Source of the DNA: a virus
DNA: 64,000 nt
Strand: one strand, 5' to 3'
Virus record (IMG/VR): IMGVR_UViG_3300024317_000004
Span: 8,418 to 72,417 of that record
Part shown: positions 1,885 to 58,540 of the stretch, piece after piece
Layout: each line of letters opens with the position of its first letter
Position numbering within the stretch: position 1 is the stretch's first letter
Translations under genes and position numbers: made by a program
Notes under the pieces: generated by a model
Told to the model about the DNA's origin: nothing
Database searches by the model: none
What the model saw: only the letters and a program-made list of their open reading frames with translations

Positions 1885-3238
1885 TGGAGATTTCGGCTTT
1901 CCGCCGGCCTACTTGCCTGATCACCTCTTTGATTTTCAGAAGTCGATGGTGGAATGGGCGTGCCGAAAGGGACGAGCTGCGCTGTTCGAAGATTGCGGAC
2001 TCGGAAAAACTCTCCAAGAGCTGGTCTGGGCCGAAAACGTCGTTCGGTACACCAATCGCCCGGTCCTTGTTCTCACGCCGCTCGCAGTTGCCGCGCAGAC
2101 GGTGCAGGAGGGGGCCAAGTTCGGCATCGAAGTCCGTCGCACGCAGAACGTTTCGGACGCCGGCATCTACGTCACTAACTACGAGCGATTGCATCACTAC
2201 GACCCAGCCGACTTCGCAGGGGTCGTTTGCGACGAATCGAGCTGTCTGAAGAACTTCGACGGCAAGACCAAGGCTGCGGTCACCGAGTTCATGCGCACGC
2301 TGCCCTACCGCTTGCTGTGCACAGCCACGGCCGCGCCGAACGACTACGTTGAGCTTGGCACCTCCTCCGAGGCCCTCGGGTATCTGGGGCATCTGGACAT
2401 GCTCAATCGGTTCTTTGTGAACCAGAACAACACCTCGGATACCAAGGGTCGGTGGCGTGGAATGAGTGCGCCGCGCGCCTACGAACAGAAGCAGTGGCGT
2501 TTCAAAGGGCACGCCGAGCAACCCTTCTGGCGGTGGGTGTGCTCCTGGGCGCGCGCGATTCGCAAGCCCAGTGACTTGGGGTTCGACGATGCCCAGTTTG
2601 CGTTACCTGACCTGGTCGAGCGAGAGCACATCGTCAAGGCACGAGCGCCGCGCGAAGACCCGATCTTCCAGTTCGATCGCGGCTTGGCCGTCCAGCGCAA
2701 GGAGCGCCGGCACACCCTTGAAGAGCGATGCGAGCGGGCCGCCAAGCTGGTCAAAAAGACAGGCCAGCCGGCGGTCTGCTGGGCCCATCTGAACGATGAA
2801 GCAGACCGGCTCGAGGCCCTGATTCCGGACGCGGTGCAGGTCAGCGGCAAGGACTCGGACGGGTCGAAAGAAGAAAAGTTCACCGCGTTCGCTTCGGGCC
2901 AAGCGCGGGTCATGGTGATCAAGCCGGTTGTCGGAGCCTGGGGATTGAACTGGCAGCACTGCGCGCACGTGGTCGTGTTCGCAAGCTACAGCTTTGAGCA
3001 GTACTACCAGTGCATTCGTCGATGCTGGCGCTTTGGCCAGAAGCGTCCTGTTGTCGTCGGTCACGTGGTTTCGGACGGAGAGGGCGATGTGCTCGCGGCT
3101 CGTCAGCGCAAGGCCGCACAGACCGACGTGATGTTCGGCGAGCTATTGCGCCACATGCGCGAGGGCATGGGCGTTGCGCGCAGCGCGTACGGAAACAAAC
3201 ACGAGGAGGTGCCACCATGGCTGTGTTCGATCAGGTAA
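1841..3238 (+). CDS. SNF2/DEAD-like helicase
   Basis: DCGLGKT (Walker A), VCDESS (Walker B), TATAAPND, YYQCIRRCWRFGQ. Confidence 0.9.
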   Translation: MLSYQAFLSRKSQLDGDFGFPPAYLPDHLFDFQKSMVEWACRKGRAALFEDCGLGKTLQELVWAENVVRYTNRPVLVLTPLAVAAQTVQEGAKFGIEVRRTQNVSDAGIYVTNYERLHHYDPADFAGVVCDESSCLKNFDGKTKAAVTEFMRTLPYRLLCTATAAPNDYVELGTSSEALGYLGHLDMLNRFFVNQNNTSDTKGRWRGMSAPRAYEQKQWRFKGHAEQPFWRWVCSWARAIRKPSDLGFDDAQFALPDLVEREHIVKARAPREDPIFQFDRGLAVQRKERRHTLEERCERAAKLVKKTGQPAVCWAHLNDEADRLEALIPDAVQVSGKDSDGSKEEKFTAFASGQARVMVIKPVVGAWGLNWQHCAHVVVFASYSFEQYYQCIRRCWRFGQKRPVVVGHVVSDGEGDVLAARQRKAAQTDVMFGELLRHMREGMGVARSAYGNKHEEVPPWLCSIR

Positions 3239-4245
3239 TCACGGATCGTTATGGCCTCTATCACGGGGATTGCTGCGAGGTCATGGCGCGCCTGCCAGAC
3301 GCTTGCATTCACCTCTCGGTGTACTCTCCCCCATTTTGTGGGCTCTACCACTATTCGAGCTCGCCGCGCGATCTGTCCAACGCACGTAACTACGACGAGT
3401 TCTTTGAACACTACGAGATCGTGGTTCGGGAGCTGTTCCGGCTGACCCTACCGGGCCGCATGACGGCCGTGCATTGCATGGATGTGCCGAGCGGCAATAC
3501 CGGCTGCGACCATCGGATCGACTTCCCGGGTGACATCATTCGCATGCACGAGCGGATCGGATTCCGCTACGTCGCACGTTACTGCATCTGGAAAGAACCG
3601 CTCGGGGTTCGCAATCGGACCATGGCCAAGAACTTGGCCCACAAGAGCATCGTCGAGGACAGCTCGCGATGCTCGAACGCGGCGGCGGATTACCTCCTGG
3701 TCTTTCGTCGAAAGGGAGAGAACAAGATCCCGATTGTCCACCCGAACGGACTGACCGAGTACGCGGGCGCACGGGAGATTCCGAAGGAGCTGCTCGAATA
3801 CAAAGGCTGGACCGGCAAGCAAACCGAGAATCGGTACAGTCATTGGATTTGGCGACAGTACGCCAGTGCGTTCTGGGATGACGTTCGCCTTGACCGCGTG
3901 TTGCCCTACCGTGAAGCACGCGACTCGGACGATGAGAAGCACGTGCACCCTTTGCAGCTCGATGTGATCGAGCGATGCGTCGTGCTCTGGTCGAACCCGA
4001 AAGAACGTGTGCTCACACCATTCGCAGGCGTTGGGTCCGAAGTCTGCGTCCCTGTAGATCTGGATCGTTTCGCAATCGGGATCGAGCTGAAGGGCTCGTA
4101 CTTCAAGCAATCGGTGCGGAATGCAGCCGACTTCTCTGGGCACGCTTCCAAGAAAGAAAAGAAGACCCCGGGCAAAGCACGGACGGCTACTTCGCCCACC
4201 ATCGGCCAACTCGATCTGCCCATCTTCGAAAAGAAAAGCGCGTAG
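3217..4245 (+). CDS. DNA methyltransferase (N4-C/N6-A, beta class)
   Basis: HGDC...SVYSPPF catalytic motif, VLTPFAGVGSE SAM-binding motif; RBS GAGGAGG upstream. Confidence 0.9.
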   Translation: MAVFDQVITDRYGLYHGDCCEVMARLPDACIHLSVYSPPFCGLYHYSSSPRDLSNARNYDEFFEHYEIVVRELFRLTLPGRMTAVHCMDVPSGNTGCDHRIDFPGDIIRMHERIGFRYVARYCIWKEPLGVRNRTMAKNLAHKSIVEDSSRCSNAAADYLLVFRRKGENKIPIVHPNGLTEYAGAREIPKELLEYKGWTGKQTENRYSHWIWRQYASAFWDDVRLDRVLPYREARDSDDEKHVHPLQLDVIERCVVLWSNPKERVLTPFAGVGSEVCVPVDLDRFAIGIELKGSYFKQSVRNAADFSGHASKKEKKTPGKARTATSPTIGQLDLPIFEKKSA

Positions 4246-7625: not shown

Positions 7626-8770
7626 AGTACAAGCATCAAACTTGGCGTAAATTGTACATCAAGGAAGAGGGTGCTTTTGCGAAGCTCCCGTTCACCGCAC
7701 GTGCCTACGCGAAACAGCTCATGCTTCTCTGTGATGGTGCGGGTCGGATTCATGTGGGCAATGGAGACGACTGCGTCAAGCTACTCGTAGAGACGGCTGG
7801 ATTCCGTATCGGTGCCACGCGTGGAGACCGTCGGATGATGAGCACGATGTTCCCTATGCTCTTCGAAGAGGGCTACCTGGTTCATCGAAGTCCTTACGTT
7901 GTCATTCGAAACTTTGTAGCAGCTCAGCGCAAGTGGTCCGACGACGAAGAACAACCCCCCGGCTCTGACGATTCGTCCACGATCGTTCCACCATCCAGCA
8001 ATGAAGCTGCAGCGAACCCACCACGAACCGGTAATGAAGCTGCAACGACCGAGCAACGACCGAGCAATGACGGTGCAACGAACGGGGAACGAACGGGGAA
8101 CGAACCGACCACTGAACAAGAGCTAAGTACGCTAAATCATTCAGATGACGTTGCTAGCGCGCACACGCGCGCGCTCAGTTCTGATCTGAGTAGTTCTGAT
8201 CTGAGTAGTTTTGAGATGAAGGGGGTGCAGGGGGAACAACAGCAGCCGATCGATAAGCCAGAGACCGATCCGGCAATCACTCCGGCATCTGGCGATGCCT
8301 CCGCGCCGCACAAAAAAACAAAGCGCCGAAAGCCCAAAGCCCCTGCCCCGGAAGTCCCGATCCCTGAACCGGGCACGGTTGCCAGGTCAGTCTACGACGC
8401 GATCGTTAACGACCCGATCCTGGGACCGATCACGGCAGGCCCTGCTGACTTCGCCGTACGCATCACTCACCCGGACGCATACCCAGGCGTCAACGTGCTG
8501 GCGGAAGTCCTACGCGCCGCAGAGCACTACGCTCGCGGCAAGCGGGTCTACACCGATGGCCGCAGAACGCTTGCCAACTGGCTTCGCGGCGAGGCCGAAA
8601 AAGAAGCCAGTCGGCCCAAGCCAACTCCGAACCAACTAGCGCTTGGAGCCAAGAAAACCAAAGGCCCGCTTGATCCAGCACCCGCGAGCAAGTTCACGCG
8701 ACCCGGCGAATCGTACGACCCGTTCAGTTTGTACAACGCCGATGGCAGCCCGAAGGGAGCGACGCAGTGA
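7622..8770 (+). CDS. phage replication initiator protein
   Basis: upstream of a DnaC-like ATPase; low-complexity middle containing DNA repeats. Confidence 0.65.
   Translation: MKYKHQTWRKLYIKEEGAFAKLPFTARAYAKQLMLLCDGAGRIHVGNGDDCVKLLVETAGFRIGATRGDRRMMSTMFPMLFEEGYLVHRSPYVVIRNFVAAQRKWSDDEEQPPGSDDSSTIVPPSSNEAAANPPRTGNEAATTEQRPSNDGATNGERTGNEPTTEQELSTLNHSDDVASAHTRALSSDLSSSDLSSFEMKGVQGEQQQPIDKPETDPAITPASGDASAPHKKTKRRKPKAPAPEVPIPEPGTVARSVYDAIVNDPILGPITAGPADFAVRITHPDAYPGVNVLAEVLRAAEHYARGKRVYTDGRRTLANWLRGEAEKEASRPKPTPNQLALGAKKTKGPLDPAPASKFTRPGESYDPFSLYNADGSPKGATQ
7998..8208 (+). repeat. iteron-like repeats, probable replication origin
   Basis: AATGAAGCTGCA repeats, tandem AACGAACGGGG, tandem TCTGATCTGAGTAGT inside the initiator gene. 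Confidence 0.6.
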
Positions 8771-46274: not shown

Positions 46275-48515
46275 ATGACCACAGCACCGAAGATTATTGC
46301 CCTGCAGTCTGCGGGCCCCGGAGTCCTGACGGCCGTTCTTGAGACCATCAACCAAGAGCCCAAGGGCTCTCAGCCAGACGTCCTCGACCTGGATCCGGCG
46401 CACTGGACGGTCAATGGCGCGCACCCAGTTGCGATCCACCGGTACTCATTGCCATGGTACGAGCAACCCAAAGCCGCAGACGGAACCTACGAGATCACGG
46501 TTCGTCACTCGGTGTTCTTAACGCTTGGGCAGCCTTTCGTAGACGCGACGTCCTACGCGGTTGCGTGCCCTTATGGGAACGCTGGGCTTGTGTTTGGCAA
46601 TAGGACGACGTTCGCGTCGTGCATCAAGACCAACCAGTCTGCGTATGCAAAAGCATCCACCGCGCGGTTCGCGAACCTCGGGGTGTGGCTCGGCGACGGG
46701 GGCCCGATGGCCCTCAGTCCTTTGCCGGCGTACGAAGTCATTCGCGAGTCGGATGGCGCGGTCATCTACAAAGGAACCGCCGCGGCGGGCATCGATGACA
46801 CTGGGTTAGCGGGGCCTAAGAGCGGGGAAATTGTCCATCGCCTGGATCTGAGCGCAGTCCCCGAGGGCGGCGCTTATTTTGTGAGTGTTCCGGGTATCGG
46901 CAGAAGCCGATCGTTTTGGGTTGGCGGCGACGTTGAGCGCAGGACCGCCATCGTTGCACTGCACAGCTTGACGATCGCTCGGTGTGGGCAGGAACTCAAG
47001 GAACCGTGGTCGCCATGGGCAAGGCCTGCGTGCCACCCACGCGTTACGGACGCGCGGTCACCCTATCCGGGCAGCGGGTTTATTCAGGTACCCAGTGGCG
47101 CGCAGACATTCGAGATGCGCGGCATGCGGCACGACGCCGGGGACTTTGACAGAAACCCCAACCACGCCATCATTCCAATCTTACTGCTTACCTACTTCGA
47201 AGCGTGGCCCAGTCACTTCACCGATCGGCAGTATGACATTCCGGAGTCTGGAAACGGCACGCCGGACCTGCTGGACGAGGCCCTTTGGGATGTCCTGGGG
47301 CTTGAGCATCTCCAGATTACCGATGCGAATGACCCGCTCAATGGCGGAGTTCGCAGCGGTACCGAGCAAGCGCGCCATCCAGACTACGGAATTGATAACG
47401 CGGTACTCGACAAGGGTGTGTACTCCACGTGGGGGGTGGACGGTCAGGCTGATTCGCCCGGCGAAGGCTTTACCGCCTTTGCGGCCGGGATCTTTGCTCA
47501 GGCAAGTCGATTGGTTCGCCCCTACGACGCGGCACATGCAGACGATCTGCTCGGAAGAGCACGTCTCGCGTGGGGCTATCACGCCAGCCACAACACCGCG
47601 ACGGCGATCAAGGCATACAATCTTTACGCCTCGCTTCAGCTCTATCTGACGACGGGCGAAAGCCCGTTCCATGATCTGTTCAAGGCGCAAGCGAACGCGA
47701 TTCTCGTAAAGGATGGCAGTTGGCCCGTTCAGTATCGAGGCGGCAATCTGGCCGCGAAAGTGCAGACCGTGCACTTTGCCTCGTACACGCTACCCACATC
47801 ACGCGCTGTCGATGCGACGTTGGTCGATGCGATCAAGGCACGCGTGATTCGGGAGGCCGACCAGGGCGGGTATCACGGAATTCATCCGCTCACCGACCCA
47901 TATCCCGTGGGTGCAACGAAGTTCCTGGGATACGGAGCACTGACCGCACCGGGCCGGAACGACGCAGATGCGTTTGCGAGTCTCTACGAGACCGACCCCG
48001 CCAAGAAGCAGCAGCGCATCAACAAGATGAGCCTGCTTGCTGACGGCATCCTTGGACTCAATGCCATGGGCATGAGCTATGTGGTCGGCATCGGGACCGA
48101 TCAACCGAATTGCCCGGGGCACCTGGATAGCTTCTTCGCGGAGAAAGACACGCTCCACCCCATCCCAGGTGTCATGGTGTACGGGCCGAGCGAAGGACGC
48201 AGCGGCTACGACTACCAGATGACCATCACGAACAAGCTCGTTCCCTCCTACGAGCAACTGCCAATTGGCAGGCGTTTCGTGCATGCCTGGGCATCGATTT
48301 TAAACGCGGAAGACACCATATGGGAGGTGCGCGTCTGGTTCGCCGTCCTGATGGCCTTCCTCCACGACGCCTCCAAAGACCCTGCACCCACGCTCCCGCC
48401 TCCGCCACAGCCGAGTACCGGCGTCACGCTCACAGCAGACCAATGCGATCGGTTTACACGTGCTGTTAGCGACCTCAACGCGATCCGCGACGAGCTGGGC
48501 TTGAAAGCCAGCTAA
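46275..48515 (+). CDS. glycoside hydrolase family 9-like protein
   Basis: HDAGDFD, IPESGNGTPDLLDE, LGLNAMGMSYVVGIG, NAEDTI; N-terminal Ig-like segment. Confidence 0.85.
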   Translation: MTTAPKIIALQSAGPGVLTAVLETINQEPKGSQPDVLDLDPAHWTVNGAHPVAIHRYSLPWYEQPKAADGTYEITVRHSVFLTLGQPFVDATSYAVACPYGNAGLVFGNRTTFASCIKTNQSAYAKASTARFANLGVWLGDGGPMALSPLPAYEVIRESDGAVIYKGTAAAGIDDTGLAGPKSGEIVHRLDLSAVPEGGAYFVSVPGIGRSRSFWVGGDVERRTAIVALHSLTIARCGQELKEPWSPWARPACHPRVTDARSPYPGSGFIQVPSGAQTFEMRGMRHDAGDFDRNPNHAIIPILLLTYFEAWPSHFTDRQYDIPESGNGTPDLLDEALWDVLGLEHLQITDANDPLNGGVRSGTEQARHPDYGIDNAVLDKGVYSTWGVDGQADSPGEGFTAFAAGIFAQASRLVRPYDAAHADDLLGRARLAWGYHASHNTATAIKAYNLYASLQLYLTTGESPFHDLFKAQANAILVKDGSWPVQYRGGNLAAKVQTVHFASYTLPTSRAVDATLVDAIKARVIREADQGGYHGIHPLTDPYPVGATKFLGYGALTAPGRNDADAFASLYETDPAKKQQRINKMSLLADGILGLNAMGMSYVVGIGTDQPNCPGHLDSFFAEKDTLHPIPGVMVYGPSEGRSGYDYQMTITNKLVPSYEQLPIGRRFVHAWASILNAEDTIWEVRVWFAVLMAFLHDASKDPAPTLPPPPQPSTGVTLTADQCDRFTRAVSDLNAIRDELGLKAS

Positions 48516-50379: not shown

Positions 50380-51177
50380 ATGGAAAAGTGGAGTGAACCG
50401 AAAGGGCCACCACCGCGATGGCTCGACCTTGCCGACGAAGTCACGGCCGACGAGCCGAAGCCGCCTCGTGACCAGTTCGTCGTGGCGTGCATGGAGGCGT
50501 GCTTGCGACTCGATTGCAACCCGATGCAAGCGGCAGGCGTCACGGCCAACGTGATGAACGAGAGTGCGTGGGGGCAGTCGTATCGCGGCAATAACTTGGG
50601 TGGCTGGAAGATCTACGAGCACTACGCGATCGCGTATCGCAAGGCTCATGGCAAAGGACCACGCTGGTGGCGCGGTCCCGGCAACAAAGCGCCTGGGGCC
50701 ACACCGAAAGACCTCAAAGGGGGCGATCCGCCGTGGTGCTTCTACAGAGCGTTCGAGTCCATCGAGGACTTTCTCGCGAGCTGGCTCAAGACGTTCGTTC
50801 CAGAGCCGCCCCTTGGTACGCCCTCTCGCGAGAGCAAAGGCGATCCCGCAACGGGTGATTACCGACTTGCGGGTGAACGATTTTGGGGCCGTCGGGCCAA
50901 TTGGTTCGATGCCATGGTTGCGGCCGGGTACAAGGGCTCGCGCACCGAAGCGAGTCCCGAGCAAGCGATTGCCGAACATCACAGTTTGGTGCAGTCCGCC
51001 TTAACTCGCTGGGGGCAATCACGTTTAGGCGTGACGGCTGACGGAGCCTGGGGGCCCAAAAGCAAAACGGCCTGCGCCGCGTTTCAGGCTTGGCACGGAC
51101 TGTCGGTCACGAACATTCTAGACGACGAGACGCTGGTTGCTTTGGTGCACAGCAAACAACAGCCCCAACCAGAGTGA
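50380..51177 (+). CDS. endolysin (glucosaminidase/lysozyme-like plus peptidoglycan-binding domain)
   Basis: NESAWG...NNLGG...YRAFES...AAGY; C-terminal ADGAWGPKS...FQAWHGL. Confidence 0.8.
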   Translation: MEKWSEPKGPPPRWLDLADEVTADEPKPPRDQFVVACMEACLRLDCNPMQAAGVTANVMNESAWGQSYRGNNLGGWKIYEHYAIAYRKAHGKGPRWWRGPGNKAPGATPKDLKGGDPPWCFYRAFESIEDFLASWLKTFVPEPPLGTPSRESKGDPATGDYRLAGERFWGRRANWFDAMVAAGYKGSRTEASPEQAIAEHHSLVQSALTRWGQSRLGVTADGAWGPKSKTACAAFQAWHGLSVTNILDDETLVALVHSKQQPQPE

Positions 51178-51179
51178 CC

Positions 51180-51957
51180 TGGTTGGGGCCATTCCCTGTC
51201 CCTTCCGCTCCTTTGCAGTCCTGCCCCATCCGCTCCATTGCCATCGGTTGCAATGAGGCCCGTTCCTCTCGTAGCCCCTCCCGTCCTATCCATTCCACTC
51301 GGTTGCTGTCGCTTGCTCTCCCCTCCGTCCCCCTGCTTTGCCCGAGCCTTCGCCCGGCTCCGATGCAGCACGCTGCACCCGAGTCGAGCCACCGGCGAAC
51401 CGGCGAACTCGGGGCCTTTGCGATCCTTTCCCCTGCTGTCCTGACCTGTCCGCATCCCATCGGCTCCCCTCCCCTCCCCAACGCTCCCCATTAGCGCTCG
51501 GGACGAGGCCCGGATTGCTCCGGGCGCCGTTGGGCTCCACTCCTGTCCGGTTCACTCCGTTGCCGCCCTTGCCTCTGCTTTCCGCTCCCCTCTGCCCCAA
51601 TGCAGTCCGTCGTTTCCAACGCACTCGCTTGAATGCGCTCGAAACGGCGCTCGCGCGAACGCGATGCCGGCCATTCCGTTCCTCCCCGGCCCAATCATGT
51701 CATTCCCAGGCCGCTCCCATGCTCTGCAGTCGGCCCCCCTCCATCGCGTTCCGCTTCACCCCAGTACACATCCACTCCTCTCCCCTCTCCAAAGCACCTG
51801 AATGCTCTCGAGACGGGACCCGATCTCTCGGGACACGTCGCCTTTCCTCTGCGGTCCGTTCACTTGCTCTCCGGTGCCGTCCCATCACTTCCTTTGCAGC
51901 CAACTCTCGTCCTGCCCACTCCCCGCTTTTCCTCTCCGCTCCACCCCTCTGCCGTCC
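51180..51957 (-). ncRNA. array of about five pentamer-repeat (GGA/GCA/GGG + NN) units separated by tetraloop hairpins; candidate guide RNAs
   Basis: 5-nt periodicity on the minus strand, e.g. GGACG GCAGA GGGGT GGAGC GGAGA GGAAA...; four hairpin separators with a shared 3' motif. Confidence 0.8.
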
Positions 51958-51972: not shown

Positions 51973-52569
51973 TTATGCGGCTTTCTTTGCTAGGTCGCCG
52001 TCCCAGCAAACGACCGCGAAAATCCCGAACGGACCACCACGCTGAACTCTGTAGTCGCCGAGACCGTTTCCGATGCCGGCCTCTTCGAGCAAGAGCCTGA
52101 TAGTTGCTTCATCCAAGATCTCCGTACGCAACCGAAGATTGAACTTAGCGCTCCATTCGTCGAGCCGCGCACGATGTCTCATGACGCGGCCTTTTGTTGC
52201 GGGAATTACGACCGCTCGGCTGTCAACCTCGAAGTCCTTTGCGCGAGTTTTTCGGTCCTTGAGATACAAGGGCACCATGTCTTCGCAAACCACGCACGCA
52301 GCGGGCACGAGATACTTTAAGGACTTGCGAGATCCTCGCTGTTTGTGTCCAGCGCCCATTTCGGCGATTGCGCGGCTAATCCCAGTACCTGCGATGCATA
52401 GTCCGCCCTTAGAGTCGCGATGCGTGCCTTTCTCGGCAATGTCTCGCGGCAACTCTGTGGTGATCTGCACGCGACGTGTTGATTTTCCACTGTCCGCCTG
52501 CGCCTGATCGCCAAACTTGTGAATCAGCAACGGCGAAACGCCCTCGATCCAGACCTCAATCGTTTTCAC
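51973..52569 (-). CDS. solo RAMP/Cas7-like protein (VIPR-type effector candidate)
   Basis: N-terminal IEGVSPLLIH, RHRARLDEWSAKF strand, C-terminal G-loop AGIGNGLGDYRVQRGGPFGIF; RBS GGAGG. Confidence 0.8.
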   Translation of the reverse strand: MKTIEVWIEGVSPLLIHKFGDQAQADSGKSTRRVQITTELPRDIAEKGTHRDSKGGLCIAGTGISRAIAEMGAGHKQRGSRKSLKYLVPAACVVCEDMVPLYLKDRKTRAKDFEVDSRAVVIPATKGRVMRHRARLDEWSAKFNLRLRTEILDEATIRLLLEEAGIGNGLGDYRVQRGGPFGIFAVVCWDGDLAKKAA

Positions 52570-52582
52570 TTTGCCTCCATTA

Positions 52583-52652
52583 AGCCCTTTCGGGCCCCTT
52601 CCATTCCCCCGCTCTCCATCCCCACCACTTGCTCTCCTTCGTGTTCCAGTCC
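52583..52652 (-). ncRNA. leader pentamer-repeat unit upstream of the RAMP gene
   Basis: GGACT GGAAC ACGAA GGAGA GCAAG TGGTG GGGAT GGAGA GCGGG GGAAT GGAAG, then hairpin GCCC-GAAA-GGGC. Confidence 0.7.
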
Positions 52653-52690: not shown

Positions 52691-52855
52691 TTACTTCTTT
52701 ACTTCTCGTAGCAATCGTCTTGCTTCGAACAACGCAATGCGTCTGACGAACGACGACACATCTTCACCTGATAATTCTGCGGCTTTCGCGAGATCTCGCT
52801 TTTCCGCTTCCGTGAGACGCAACTCGAGACGCGCCGACCGACCGGACTCAACCAT
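52691..52855 (-). CDS. ribbon-helix-helix regulator (DUF1778/MobC-like), 54 aa, absent from the ORF track
   Basis: MVESGRSARLELRLTEAEKRDLAKAAELSGEDVSSFVRRIAL; upstream TGGCCA-N17-TATGAT. Confidence 0.75.
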   Translation of the reverse strand: MVESGRSARLELRLTEAEKRDLAKAAELSGEDVSSFVRRIALFEARRLLREVKK

Positions 52856-53047
52856 AGGCCAATCATACGGCTACCATACGTACATGGCCACGGCGATATC
52901 ACGGAAGGTTACAGAAGCACGTAAAACGACGGCGCGGCTCAAGGAGCTTGGCTACAAGCTAGGGCAGTGGGTAGACGCCCCGCCAGCCGACGTGCCATAG
53001 TTCGACCGTTCGGCACGACGTTGTCCGTGACGTGTTGAGCTCCTGAG

Positions 53048-57086: not shown

Positions 57087-57385
57087 GACCCCTCCAGCCC
57101 CGCCAACGCCACACCCATGCGCCGCTCGATGTCCTGGAGCTTGCGGATCATTTCCAGCGCGTCCGTGGTCGATTCGCGGATGGCCTGCTCCTCGCGAACG
57201 ATATCCACGACCGCGCGCAGGCGGGTGTTCTCCGCCTGCAAGGCATCGCGCTCCGCCTTCAGCCGCCCCACCGTGGCAATGGCATCGTTGGCAACGTGCC
57301 GTAGCCTCTCAGCGGTCGCGTACGTCTGCTCGGCGAGGCGTCGCTCGGTCTGTAGCGCGTGAGCCTTGTCGTCGGGGTCGGTCAC
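57083..57385 (-). CDS. coiled-coil hypothetical protein
   Basis: coupled ORF. Confidence 0.5.
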   Translation of the reverse strand: MTDPDDKAHALQTERRLAEQTYATAERLRHVANDAIATVGRLKAERDALQAENTRLRAVVDIVREEQAIRESTTDALEMIRKLQDIERRMGVALAGLEGS

Positions 57386-57828
57386 GCTGCCTCTATGGGT
57401 TCGTAGACACGAACGTCGGCATTGATGTCGCCTAGGTACTGTTTGATGAACGGCTTGACCTCCCGCCACTTGAGACCACCGCGGCCGCAGCCCAATGCCG
57501 GGATAGCCATCGAGACCTTGTTATCACGCAGGTACCAGAACAGCGATTCTGCGATGTCTAGAATCCACGACATCCGCGACGGATCACGCCAATGGTCTTT
57601 TGTTGCAGCATTCAGGATCGTGCGCTGGCCTGTTGAGTGCAGCAGCACCATGCCAGGCCTCAGTAGCTTCTTGACGCACTGGATCTTGTAGTCCTCGTAG
57701 TTCTCAGGAAACCGTTCCTTGAATGCCAATGCGATGCCCGCGCCGGCCACTCCGACACAATTGACGCAGTTGACCAGGCATTGGGCATCATCCTCGAGTA
57801 AGTTGCCGCGCTTCCAGGTGATGGCCAC
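57382..57828 (-). CDS. macrodomain protein (DarG/Poa1-like ADP-ribosyl hydrolase)
   Basis: GNLLEDDAQCLVNCVNCVGVAGAGIALAFKERFP...TKDHWR...PALGCGRGGL. Confidence 0.9.
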   Translation of the reverse strand: MAITWKRGNLLEDDAQCLVNCVNCVGVAGAGIALAFKERFPENYEDYKIQCVKKLLRPGMVLLHSTGQRTILNAATKDHWRDPSRMSWILDIAESLFWYLRDNKVSMAIPALGCGRGGLKWREVKPFIKQYLGDINADVRVYEPIEAA

Positions 57829-58160
57829 TACTCGACGCTCCATTCCAGGATGCCCCACATGGCGAAGTCACGCTCGGCGCCCTTGTCGACGTCAAAGCAC
57901 TTGAGCAGCCACTGCCTATGCGGGTGCCACTCGGTCGCCTTGAACTCGATGGCGATGGGCACGATGCGTCGCAAGGCGATCTCGCCTCGGTGGTTGCGAT
58001 AGCGAACCGTAACGGTCTTTTGCTCGCGGTCGAGTTTCCGCCATCGTTCACGACAGGTTTTGCACGGCACCCATTCATCGACTGGATCAAGAGGGCTATC
58101 GACCGATCGCCCGCCCTCGCCATGGCATTCATGGCAGTTTGGTGTAACGGTCTGGTTCAT
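57828..58160 (-). CDS. small WYL-domain protein with N-terminal zinc finger
   Basis: YRNHRGEIALRRIVP...WLLKCFDVDKGAERDFAM. Confidence 0.75.
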   Translation of the reverse strand: MNQTVTPNCHECHGEGGRSVDSPLDPVDEWVPCKTCRERWRKLDREQKTVTVRYRNHRGEIALRRIVPIAIEFKATEWHPHRQWLLKCFDVDKGAERDFAMWGILEWSVE

Positions 58161-58540
58161 CGCTCGCGTTCCTTTCGCCACGTCTGCAACCTGGTCACGA
58201 TCTCGTAATCCTCCGGATGACTGCCCTCACGGATCCAGTCTGGATCGCCCCAAAAGGCAGCCTCGGCATCGTCGCCAGCGCGAAGCGTCCCTGTCCATTT
58301 CGTCAACCAGACGAAGTACACAAGATGCTCGCGAACCGTTTTGTGTATGATGGGTAGCGCGTGCCAGGCTTCTGCCGTCAACCCCGTTTCCTCGAACAGC
58401 TCCCGCGCAGCCCCCTCGAACAGGGTTTCACCGGGCTGCAATGACCCGCATGGGATCTCGACGGACCCTGGGCGCTTGCGGCTTCGGATCAGCAGGACTC
58501 GCCCATGGTCGAAGGCGATAATGGCAACAGCTTCGGTCAT
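58157..58540 (-). CDS. NUDIX hydrolase
   Basis: GSLQPGETLFEGAARELFEETGL. Confidence 0.9.
   Translation of the reverse strand: MTEAVAIIAFDHGRVLLIRSRKRPGSVEIPCGSLQPGETLFEGAARELFEETGLTAEAWHALPIIHKTVREHLVYFVWLTKWTGTLRAGDDAEAAFWGDPDWIREGSHPEDYEIVTRLQTWRKERER

Follow-up and report, generated by a model that had tools for sequence, protein, structure and literature searches.

A predicted VIPR locus with a GGA-type scaffold and guides that resemble its own vipr gene

We examined 64,000 nucleotides of viral DNA (positions 8,418 to 72,417 of the IMG/VR record IMGVR_UViG_3300024317_000004), which we call the window; the element comes from soil metagenomes. On the minus strand, from 52652 to 51158, lies what appears from its sequence to be a VIPR (Viral Interference Programmable Repeat) locus, with a leader vrRNA, a vipr gene, six further vrRNA tracts downstream, and a terminator (Table 1). 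VIPR is a CRISPR-like DNA silencer that was published in 2026, and its code was published in April of that year (10.64898/2026.04.26.720920). In that preprint, phages encode Vipr proteins of the RAMP family along with vrRNAs that have 9-16 YNNGG repeats and a structured tail, and the two variable bases (NN) of each repeat pair with double-stranded DNA by a "1-nt skip rule," in which it is the wobble base that is passed over. In the window, two guides resemble the vipr gene of the same locus, sense and in frame: the leader resembles the start of the gene, and the first downstream array (array A) resembles a site further in. We lean towards the view that these guides are aimed at the vipr genes of rival elements.

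The Vipr protein and its pentamer arrays

The 198-amino-acid product of the central gene had no match in Pfam, NCBIfam, or PADLOC. It belongs to phrog_4652, whose function is unknown, and it has hundreds of well-conserved homologs of about 200 amino acids. The original prediction, which was made from the DNA letters alone, placed the gene in the RAMP family, and both structure and profile comparisons agree. The best Foldseek matches of an AlphaFold2 model (pLDDT 85.9) were Cas7-type RAMP subunits (Csm3, type VII Cas7, Cmr4, and Csf2; E = 1.5e-5 to 5.7e-4), and a profile from 36 homologs matched the SUSP1 Vipr protein (PDB 36pp_D, E = 1.1e-8, positions 2-187 versus 1-187). When aligned with SUSP1 Vipr, the protein keeps H17 and the D-aromatic-R motif of the G-loop, whose roles are described in 10.64898/2026.04.26.720927. 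Judging from these matches and the model, this is a Vipr, a minimal Cas7-like RAMP. The closest known homolog, P0002, is 85% identical. Single-protein searches found no relatives in IMG/VR or the JGI metagenomes and one distant match in the genome collection (32% identity, residues 104-172); in the phage collection, the matches, from Pseudomonas phage LESphi2 and Gordonia phages, were just 23-28% identical.

The 783 nucleotides downstream of vipr are purine rich, with a strong 5-nt periodicity of G and no 3-nt (codon) periodicity. They form six tracts of pentamers (24, 19, 15, 7+8, 15, and 9 units) that are separated by predicted hairpins. We called the arrays with our own script; Tandem Repeats Finder picked up only fragments of them. 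The tails of arrays A, B, and D and the terminal element fold better than shuffled sequences (z = -2.2 to -3.7), and those of the leader, array C, and array E do not. For the leader, the 101-nt stretch has z = -0.05, and its GAAA hairpin is a local prediction only; this hairpin is likely, on the fold model, to be the 3' tail of the leader vrRNA. Rfam gave no matches in the locus, either at the gathering score or with E up to 5 and with the hammerhead included, except for two meaningless matches to long noncoding RNAs. AATGG, considered as a tail motif, was not enriched across the window. The two halves of array D differ in register by one base, so that it may hold two short guides or be a staggered array of the published kind.

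Similar arrays lie beside related genes. In IMG/VR, 5-nt periodicity adjoins the homologous gene in 67 of 80 loci, and arrays could be called in 77 of the 80. Two of these loci, L020 and L057, have clean GGT/GGC-NN arrays. L020, on a 112-kb viral contig, has over 230 pentamer units in total, and between 2800 and 4400 it also has a truncated extra vipr start (about 2912-3170), which lies between GGTNN arrays and upstream of the full gene (3320-3895). Given the match to Vipr and the GGY arrays of the relatives (Y, pyrimidine), we dropped several other candidates for the repeats: a CsrA- or TRAP-type protein-binding RNA, a ribosome (Shine-Dalgarno) sponge, G-quadruplex DNA, and a type III toxin-antitoxin array.

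The fixed triplet of the window is GGA or, more broadly, GGR (R, purine), with frequent GCA, TGA, and CGA units. Of its 105 units, 77 have A at the third position, 19 have G, 7 have C, and 2 have T. In all 77 related loci with arrays, the majority at this position is a pyrimidine; the window Vipr is 40-57% identical to the proteins of these GGY-array relatives. In the SUSP1 protein, according to 10.64898/2026.04.26.720927, each protomer binds one repeat and the third-base pocket excludes purines. At the aligned equivalents of the pocket residues, the window Vipr and P0002 have T/V-G in helix 1, where the relatives have A/S-A, and GNGLGDYRVQR in the G-loop, where the relatives have QIGIGDYRPEK. 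Non-canonical scaffolds have been published, namely NNNGG, YNNNG, and NNNNG (10.64898/2026.04.26.720920) and GAC/NN, CAC/NN, WGT/NN, and TGH/NN (10.64898/2026.10.21.760802), and published descriptions also allow "a related consensus" beside GGY. The available text of these preprints does not name GGA/NN (GGR) among the non-canonical scaffolds. We describe the locus as a further VIPR locus with a purine-type scaffold. If confirmed, GGA/NN in a clade of GGY relatives would offer a way to study the choice of RNA by Vipr and to develop orthogonal scaffolds for engineering.

Table 1. Features in and around the locus, in window coordinates
Feature	Position	Strand	Notes
Leader vrRNA repeat tract	52583..52652	-	14 pentamers (GGR-like triplet + NN); called with own script; 5-nt G periodicity
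Short GAAA-loop hairpin (GGGCCC-GAAA-GGGCUU)	52582..52597	-	Local fold prediction; overlaps leader units 12-14
Shine-Dalgarno-like GGAGG	52578-52574	-	3' of leader hairpin; followed by vipr GTG start (52569)
vipr gene	51973..52569	-	198 amino acids, 597 nt, GTG start; Cas7-like RAMP; phrog_4652, E = 7e-17
Target-like site 1, vipr codons 3-15	52526..52563	-	18/26 sense, in-frame match to leader guide
Target-like site 2, vipr codons 42-57	52400..52446	-	Sense, in-frame match to array A
Array A	51838..51957	-	24 pentamers; begins 15 nt past vipr stop; two-hairpin tail (about 51837-51775), fold z = -3.47
Array B	51668..51762	-	19 pentamers; two-hairpin tail, fold z = -2.83
Array C	51534..51608	-	15 pentamers; hairpin tail, fold z = -0.56 (weak)
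Array D	51412..51487	-	7 + 8 pentamers, 1-nt register shift; three-hairpin tail, fold z = -2.17
Array E	51257..51331	-	15 pentamers; short hairpin, z = -1.35
Array F	51192..51236	-	9 pentamers; runs into terminator
Intrinsic-terminator-like hairpin	51158..51193	-	16 pairs; ends locus; fold z = -3.67
Endolysin-like gene	50380-51177	+	Convergent; its end faces the terminator-like hairpin
Ribbon-helix-helix open reading frame (TacA1-like or NikA-like)	52691..52855	-	54 amino acids; Pfam PF08681 (E = 1.1e-7), PF21983 (E = 1.1e-6); 38 nt upstream of leader array
Promoter-like site (TGGCCA, 17-nt spacer, TATGAT)	52862..52890	-	Upstream of the small ribbon-helix-helix gene; consensus match only

Two guides that resemble vipr

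Read from 52652 on the minus strand, the leader pentamers are GGAct GGAac ACGaa GGAga GCAag TGGtg GGGat GGAga GCGgg GGAat GGAag GGGcc CGAaa GGGct. Codons 3-15 of vipr are ACG ATT GAG GTC TGG ATC GAG GGC GTT TCG CCG TTG CTG. If the NN of pentamers 2-14 (52647-52583) are set against positions 1 and 2 of these codons, 18 of 26 bases and 8 of 13 dinucleotides are identical, including the run TG AT GA GG. Both this near-copy and the overlap of the last three pentamers with the GAAA hairpin (units 12-14 versus 52597-52582) are just as the original prediction described them. Counting the first pentamer as well (CT versus AAA) gives 18/28.

By itself, the score is unremarkable: 48 of 300 base-shuffled leader guides (16%) scored at least 18 somewhere in the contig. 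What stands out is the location of the match in the adjacent gene. Across both strands of the 72,417-nt contig, the start of vipr is the best 1-nt-skip match (18), followed by two sites with 17 and five with 16. Within the 597 nt of the gene, with both strands counted, only 15 of 5000 base-shuffled guides (0.003) scored at least 18; the same test with permuted units gave 0.0012, and just 1 of 5000 shuffled guides (0.0002) did so in frame within the first 25 codons. Among the starts of the contig's 232 open reading frames, the next best in-frame score was 15.

The match also depends on the way the guide is read. As the decisive control, we combined five dinucleotide registers with four skip lengths, and the leader reached 18 only with positions 4-5 and a skip of 1; the other 19 combinations gave 15 or less. 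For array A, the same combination gave 20/26 and the others gave 17 or less. The suggestion that these RNAs read genes in codon register is thus upheld, and it corresponds to the 1-nt skip rule that had already been published. In other words, the VIPR code (two bases read, one skipped, in codon register) was re-derived from raw sequence alone: the signal is readable, and the code is not new.

Array A matches vipr independently, again sense and in frame. Its scores are 17/20 for units 1-10 (codons 42-51), 20/26 for units 1-13, and 23/32 for units 1-16, so that identity to the gene is 85% over codons 42-51 and 72% over 16 units. At each length that we tested, this site was the unique top match in the contig. 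None of 5000 base shuffles and 1 of 1000 sliding unit permutations reached this match. Since two independent guides point at one 597-nt gene, we consider the resemblance to be real, even though the evidence from the leader is moderate.

The leader fits a homolog better than it fits its own gene, and array A may do so as well. The NN of array A spell R-D/E-V-A-D/E-K/N-G-V-H/Q-R, and the P0002 protein has RDIAEKGVHR; the match to P0002 could be up to 19/20 (an upper bound, from protein sequence alone), versus 17/20 for the window's vipr. One of the differences is at codon 49, where the gene has threonine (ACG) and the guide has GT. P0002 has valine there, which matches the guide, and none of the other 35 aligned homologs has Thr49. 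As for the leader, it matches the homologous codons of locus L001 at 19/26, above the 18/26 of its own gene. A swap between serine codon families accounts for one of the leader's mismatches (Ser12 is TCG in the gene, and the guide has AG), and AG occurs at this codon in 2 of 50 relatives. Only the subclade of the window has the W-I-E-G run; of the 50 relatives, just 8% have TG at codon 7, and just 8% have GA at codon 9.

Rival elements, feedback, or chance

If the self-like guides had a conserved role, they might be expected in related loci. In 53 dereplicated array-bearing relatives, the best match of a guide to its own vipr was never significant (smallest p, 0.08-0.09). This comparison did not include the window's leader, which the automatic caller had shortened to 8 units. 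Self-like guides are thus not a conserved device of the family and are particular to this element, which fits the expectation for hypervariable guide content. The original prediction had also proposed to test whether leader NN strings covary with their own or related RAMP genes, and we saw no such covariation among the 53 relatives. In 26 of the 53 loci, the own match was no better than at least 90% of shuffles; we do not claim self-avoidance from this excess of high p values, as tied discrete scores and redundant arrays inflate it.

We give somewhat better than an even chance to the leader being an anti-vipr-type guide that hits the vipr genes of sibling or rival elements while its own gene is spared. 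There is a precedent: as described in 10.64898/2026.10.15.759431, solo vrRNAs of VIPR-null phages of the SUSP1 family recognize early codons of rivals' vipr. In that study, anti-vipr targets were called at an identity of at least 0.8, self scores were below non-self scores, and the vrRNAs were read as weapons for use on VIPR systems of rivals. If the locus works like the solved SUSP1 system, each pentamer would carry one Vipr protomer, which hides the fixed triplet and presents the two variable bases, and the presented NN would pair with double-stranded DNA, skipping every third target base. The leader guide, which copies codons 3-15 of its own vipr at 69% (sense and in frame), and array A, as an 85% copy of codons 42-51, would both silence the vipr of close rivals that belong to the "VWIEG" subclade. 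Differences at 8/26 and 3/20 of the read positions would let the element's own gene escape, such as Ser12 (TCG versus AG) and Thr49 (ACG versus GT). The leader guide has the sense orientation of the gene, which excludes antisense pairing to vipr mRNA, and any reading of vipr must be on the DNA template strand. The sequence shows the layout of the locus, its family, the matches with their statistics, and their register specificity; we infer that the RNAs are produced and processed, that the SUSP1-type mechanism applies to a GGA scaffold, and that a rival target exists.

Identity to the element's own gene is 69% for the leader and 72-77% for array A over 13-16 units. Since both values are under the published line of 80%, and since array A, going by the P0002 protein, may fit P0002 better than its own gene and the leader fits L001 better, a rival seems to be a better target than self. 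Both feedback repression and competition between related systems had been suggested for these RNAs. Competition fits better, and autoregulation is less likely; the lack of significantly self-like guides in the 53 relatives speaks against a conserved feedback repressor.

Several results weigh against guides aimed at rivals. No guide match of 80% or more at the DNA level was found in any collection that we searched; the best non-self DNA matches were 19/26 (leader, L001) and 16/20 (array A). Exact gapped-pattern searches of IMG/VR found no target either for the leader, with the full or the relaxed pattern, or for units 1-10 of array A. Those ten units had two matches in the JGI metagenomes, neither in vipr (one was antisense in a HEPN/MNT locus), and the relaxed array A pattern had three in IMG/VR, none in vipr; these array A matches outside vipr genes are at chance level. 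Across loci, matches of at least 17/20 between guides and the vipr of other loci came to 4 windows versus 2 in the shuffled control, so they were not enriched among the 53 relatives. The leader statistics become moderate if one considers that about eight arrays could have been tried and that the 18/26 leaves out the first unit; units 12-14 also overlap the hairpin, and in 10-unit windows the leader reaches 14/20, which is background. Leader units 2, 4, and 12 (AA, AG, and AA) find no match in any of 50 relatives, and they would put polar or charged residues (K/N, S/R, and K/N) at hydrophobic positions that are buried. No sampled or plausible vipr would come above about 20/26 (77%) to the leader, which is itself under the published threshold. 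Finally, that the own gene is spared (that is, that 69-77% identity is too low to bind) is an assumption; the available published text does not state how many mismatches Vipr tolerates. The leader may thus be a weakened or relic guide, or a guide with another target. Arrays B to F had no match above background in the contig or in 86 loci, and sequencing runs X2 and X3 contained the same element just as short pieces that are nearly identical to it, with no variant allele.

Negative feedback, in which partial matches would let the leader and array A guides bind the coding DNA of the element's own vipr and limit Vipr expression, seems unlikely to us. It would account for two separate guides that match the same gene, sense and in frame, each with its best match in the contig there, and four to five consecutive units are exact, with the mismatch tolerance of Vipr, again, not given in the text available. 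The leader also lies in the 5' untranslated region of vipr, beside the Shine-Dalgarno sequence, and in a variant of this idea that needs no NN match, Vipr would assemble on the leader in its own 5' untranslated region, 5 nt from GGAGG, and occlude the ribosome-binding site. However, in none of the 53 relatives is a guide significantly similar to its own gene. The design is therefore not a conserved one, and the comparison across the family speaks against conserved feedback by self-like guides. The published surveys report no self-match at 80% or more; array A seems to fit a homolog better than its own gene; and mismatches at a feedback site bring no gain to a pure silencer, yet 8 of the 26 read positions differ. 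It is also fairly improbable that the leader's match is a coincidence, with a real vrRNA whose target is in an unsampled gene and an 18/26 helped by shared purine-rich composition. The 16% of shuffled guides that do as well somewhere in the contig, the number of arrays and unit choices that were open, the three leader units that match no vipr, and the background-level 10-unit windows are what a coincidence would give. But the gene-level and in-frame start-region probabilities (0.003 and 0.0002) are low, only the canonical register and skip give the match (1 of 20 combinations), the same locus has an independent and stronger vipr match from array A, and early vipr codons are a published guide target.

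The intermediate identity of 69-77% could also be what is left of a guide that originally copied a vipr start exactly, either its own (acquired by some guide-making process) or that of an extinct rival, and that drifted or was selected away from self-recognition and is now non-functional. We consider this quite improbable. Three leader units encode implausible residues, and the triplets of those units are non-canonical (ACG, GCA, and CGA), as such decay would predict; yet 9 of the 14 leader triplets start with GG, which is no worse than array A (13 of 24). The discussion of 10.64898/2026.04.26.720920 says that the origin of vrRNA guides is not known. Returning to guides aimed at rivals, a broader and more doubtful scenario, built on sequence comparisons, is that this lineage switched its scaffold from GGY to GGA, maybe through changes in the position-3 pocket, and that the switch would protect it from being hijacked by rivals' GGY solo vrRNAs while it carries two guides against sibling vipr, with its own gene marked for escape (Ser12 TCG versus AG; Thr49 versus GT). 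This would be an arms race over both scaffold and target. Whatever the role of the guides, a VIPR-positive prophage with two near-copy guides of its own effector gene is a natural case for measuring how many mismatches separate self from target.

Setting of the locus and comparison with known systems

The record is that of a tailed prophage, with terminase, portal, sheath, tape-measure, tail-fiber, endolysin-like, HNH, and integrase genes in the window, and this viral or proviral setting fits VIPR. VIPR loci "typically" carry a vap accessory gene, a wording of 10.64898/2026.04.26.720920 that does not make it strictly defining. No vap was found beside vipr in the window: there is no open reading frame between vipr and the arrays, and the only neighbor is the upstream ribbon-helix-helix gene. 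To judge from its sequence and position, this gene may be a regulator or accessory gene of the locus; it has no counterpart beside vipr in 80 related loci, and no toxin partner is visible. The promoter-like site upstream of it is a possible operon promoter, going by the consensus match. Between the ribbon-helix-helix gene and the leader, there is a palindromic GTACGTAC...GTACGTA stretch.

Two other regions of the prophage are worth recording. Just past the tail-fiber region, at 46275-48515 (plus strand), a 746-amino-acid protein has glycoside hydrolase family 9 and CelD_N domains and is possibly a tail-associated polysaccharide depolymerase. In the early region near the integrase, a Macro-domain gene (57382-57858) and a NUDIX gene (58157-58540) lie side by side on the minus strand (57382-58540) and are candidates for counter-defense against ADP-ribose or nucleotide signals.

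Among known systems, the closest is type II VIPR of Escherichia phage SUSP1 and a Pseudomonas fulva prophage. That system (10.64898/2026.04.26.720920; structures in 10.64898/2026.04.26.720927) likewise has a small Cas7-like Vipr of about 200 amino acids in a phage or prophage, a single upstream vrRNA together with an array on the downstream side of the gene, and tandem pentamers with two variable bases and structured 3' tails (in the window, predicted ones). There too, the NN match targets in codon register with one base skipped, which in the window is an in silico result only. The two Vipr proteins are distant, with relatedness at the level of profiles (E about 1e-8). In contrast to SUSP1, whose pocket is said to exclude purines, the window has a purine at position 3 of the pentamer. 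Array A, with 24 units, is longer than the published 9-16 units, no vap separates vipr from the arrays, and the tails are plain predicted hairpins. Like the window, the published non-canonical VIPR scaffolds have a five-base period and, next to a Vipr-like fold, a fixed triplet that is not GGY.

The published VIPR targets lie on either strand, with no protospacer-adjacent motif, and 10.64898/2026.04.26.720920 reports no self-matches at 80% or more of NN. The vipr-targeting solo vrRNAs differ from the window's guides in several ways. They come from phages of Enterobacteriaceae and have rival targets at 80% or more, whereas the window's element is from soil metagenomes and no such target was found for it. 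Also, the element that carries the window's guides is VIPR-positive, the vipr leader holds one of the two, and both are like their own gene (69-85%).

More distantly, class 1 CRISPR systems have a period of 6 nt instead of 5, and the guide in the window, unlike theirs, is non-contiguous; the 64-kb window contains no CRISPR array or other cas genes. What the window Vipr has in common with the Cas7 backbone of those systems (Csm3, Cmr4, Csf2, and type VII Cas7) is the RRM core, the G-loop, and the thumb, and by analogy it may also form a helical filament along the guide RNA, with periodic flipping of bases.

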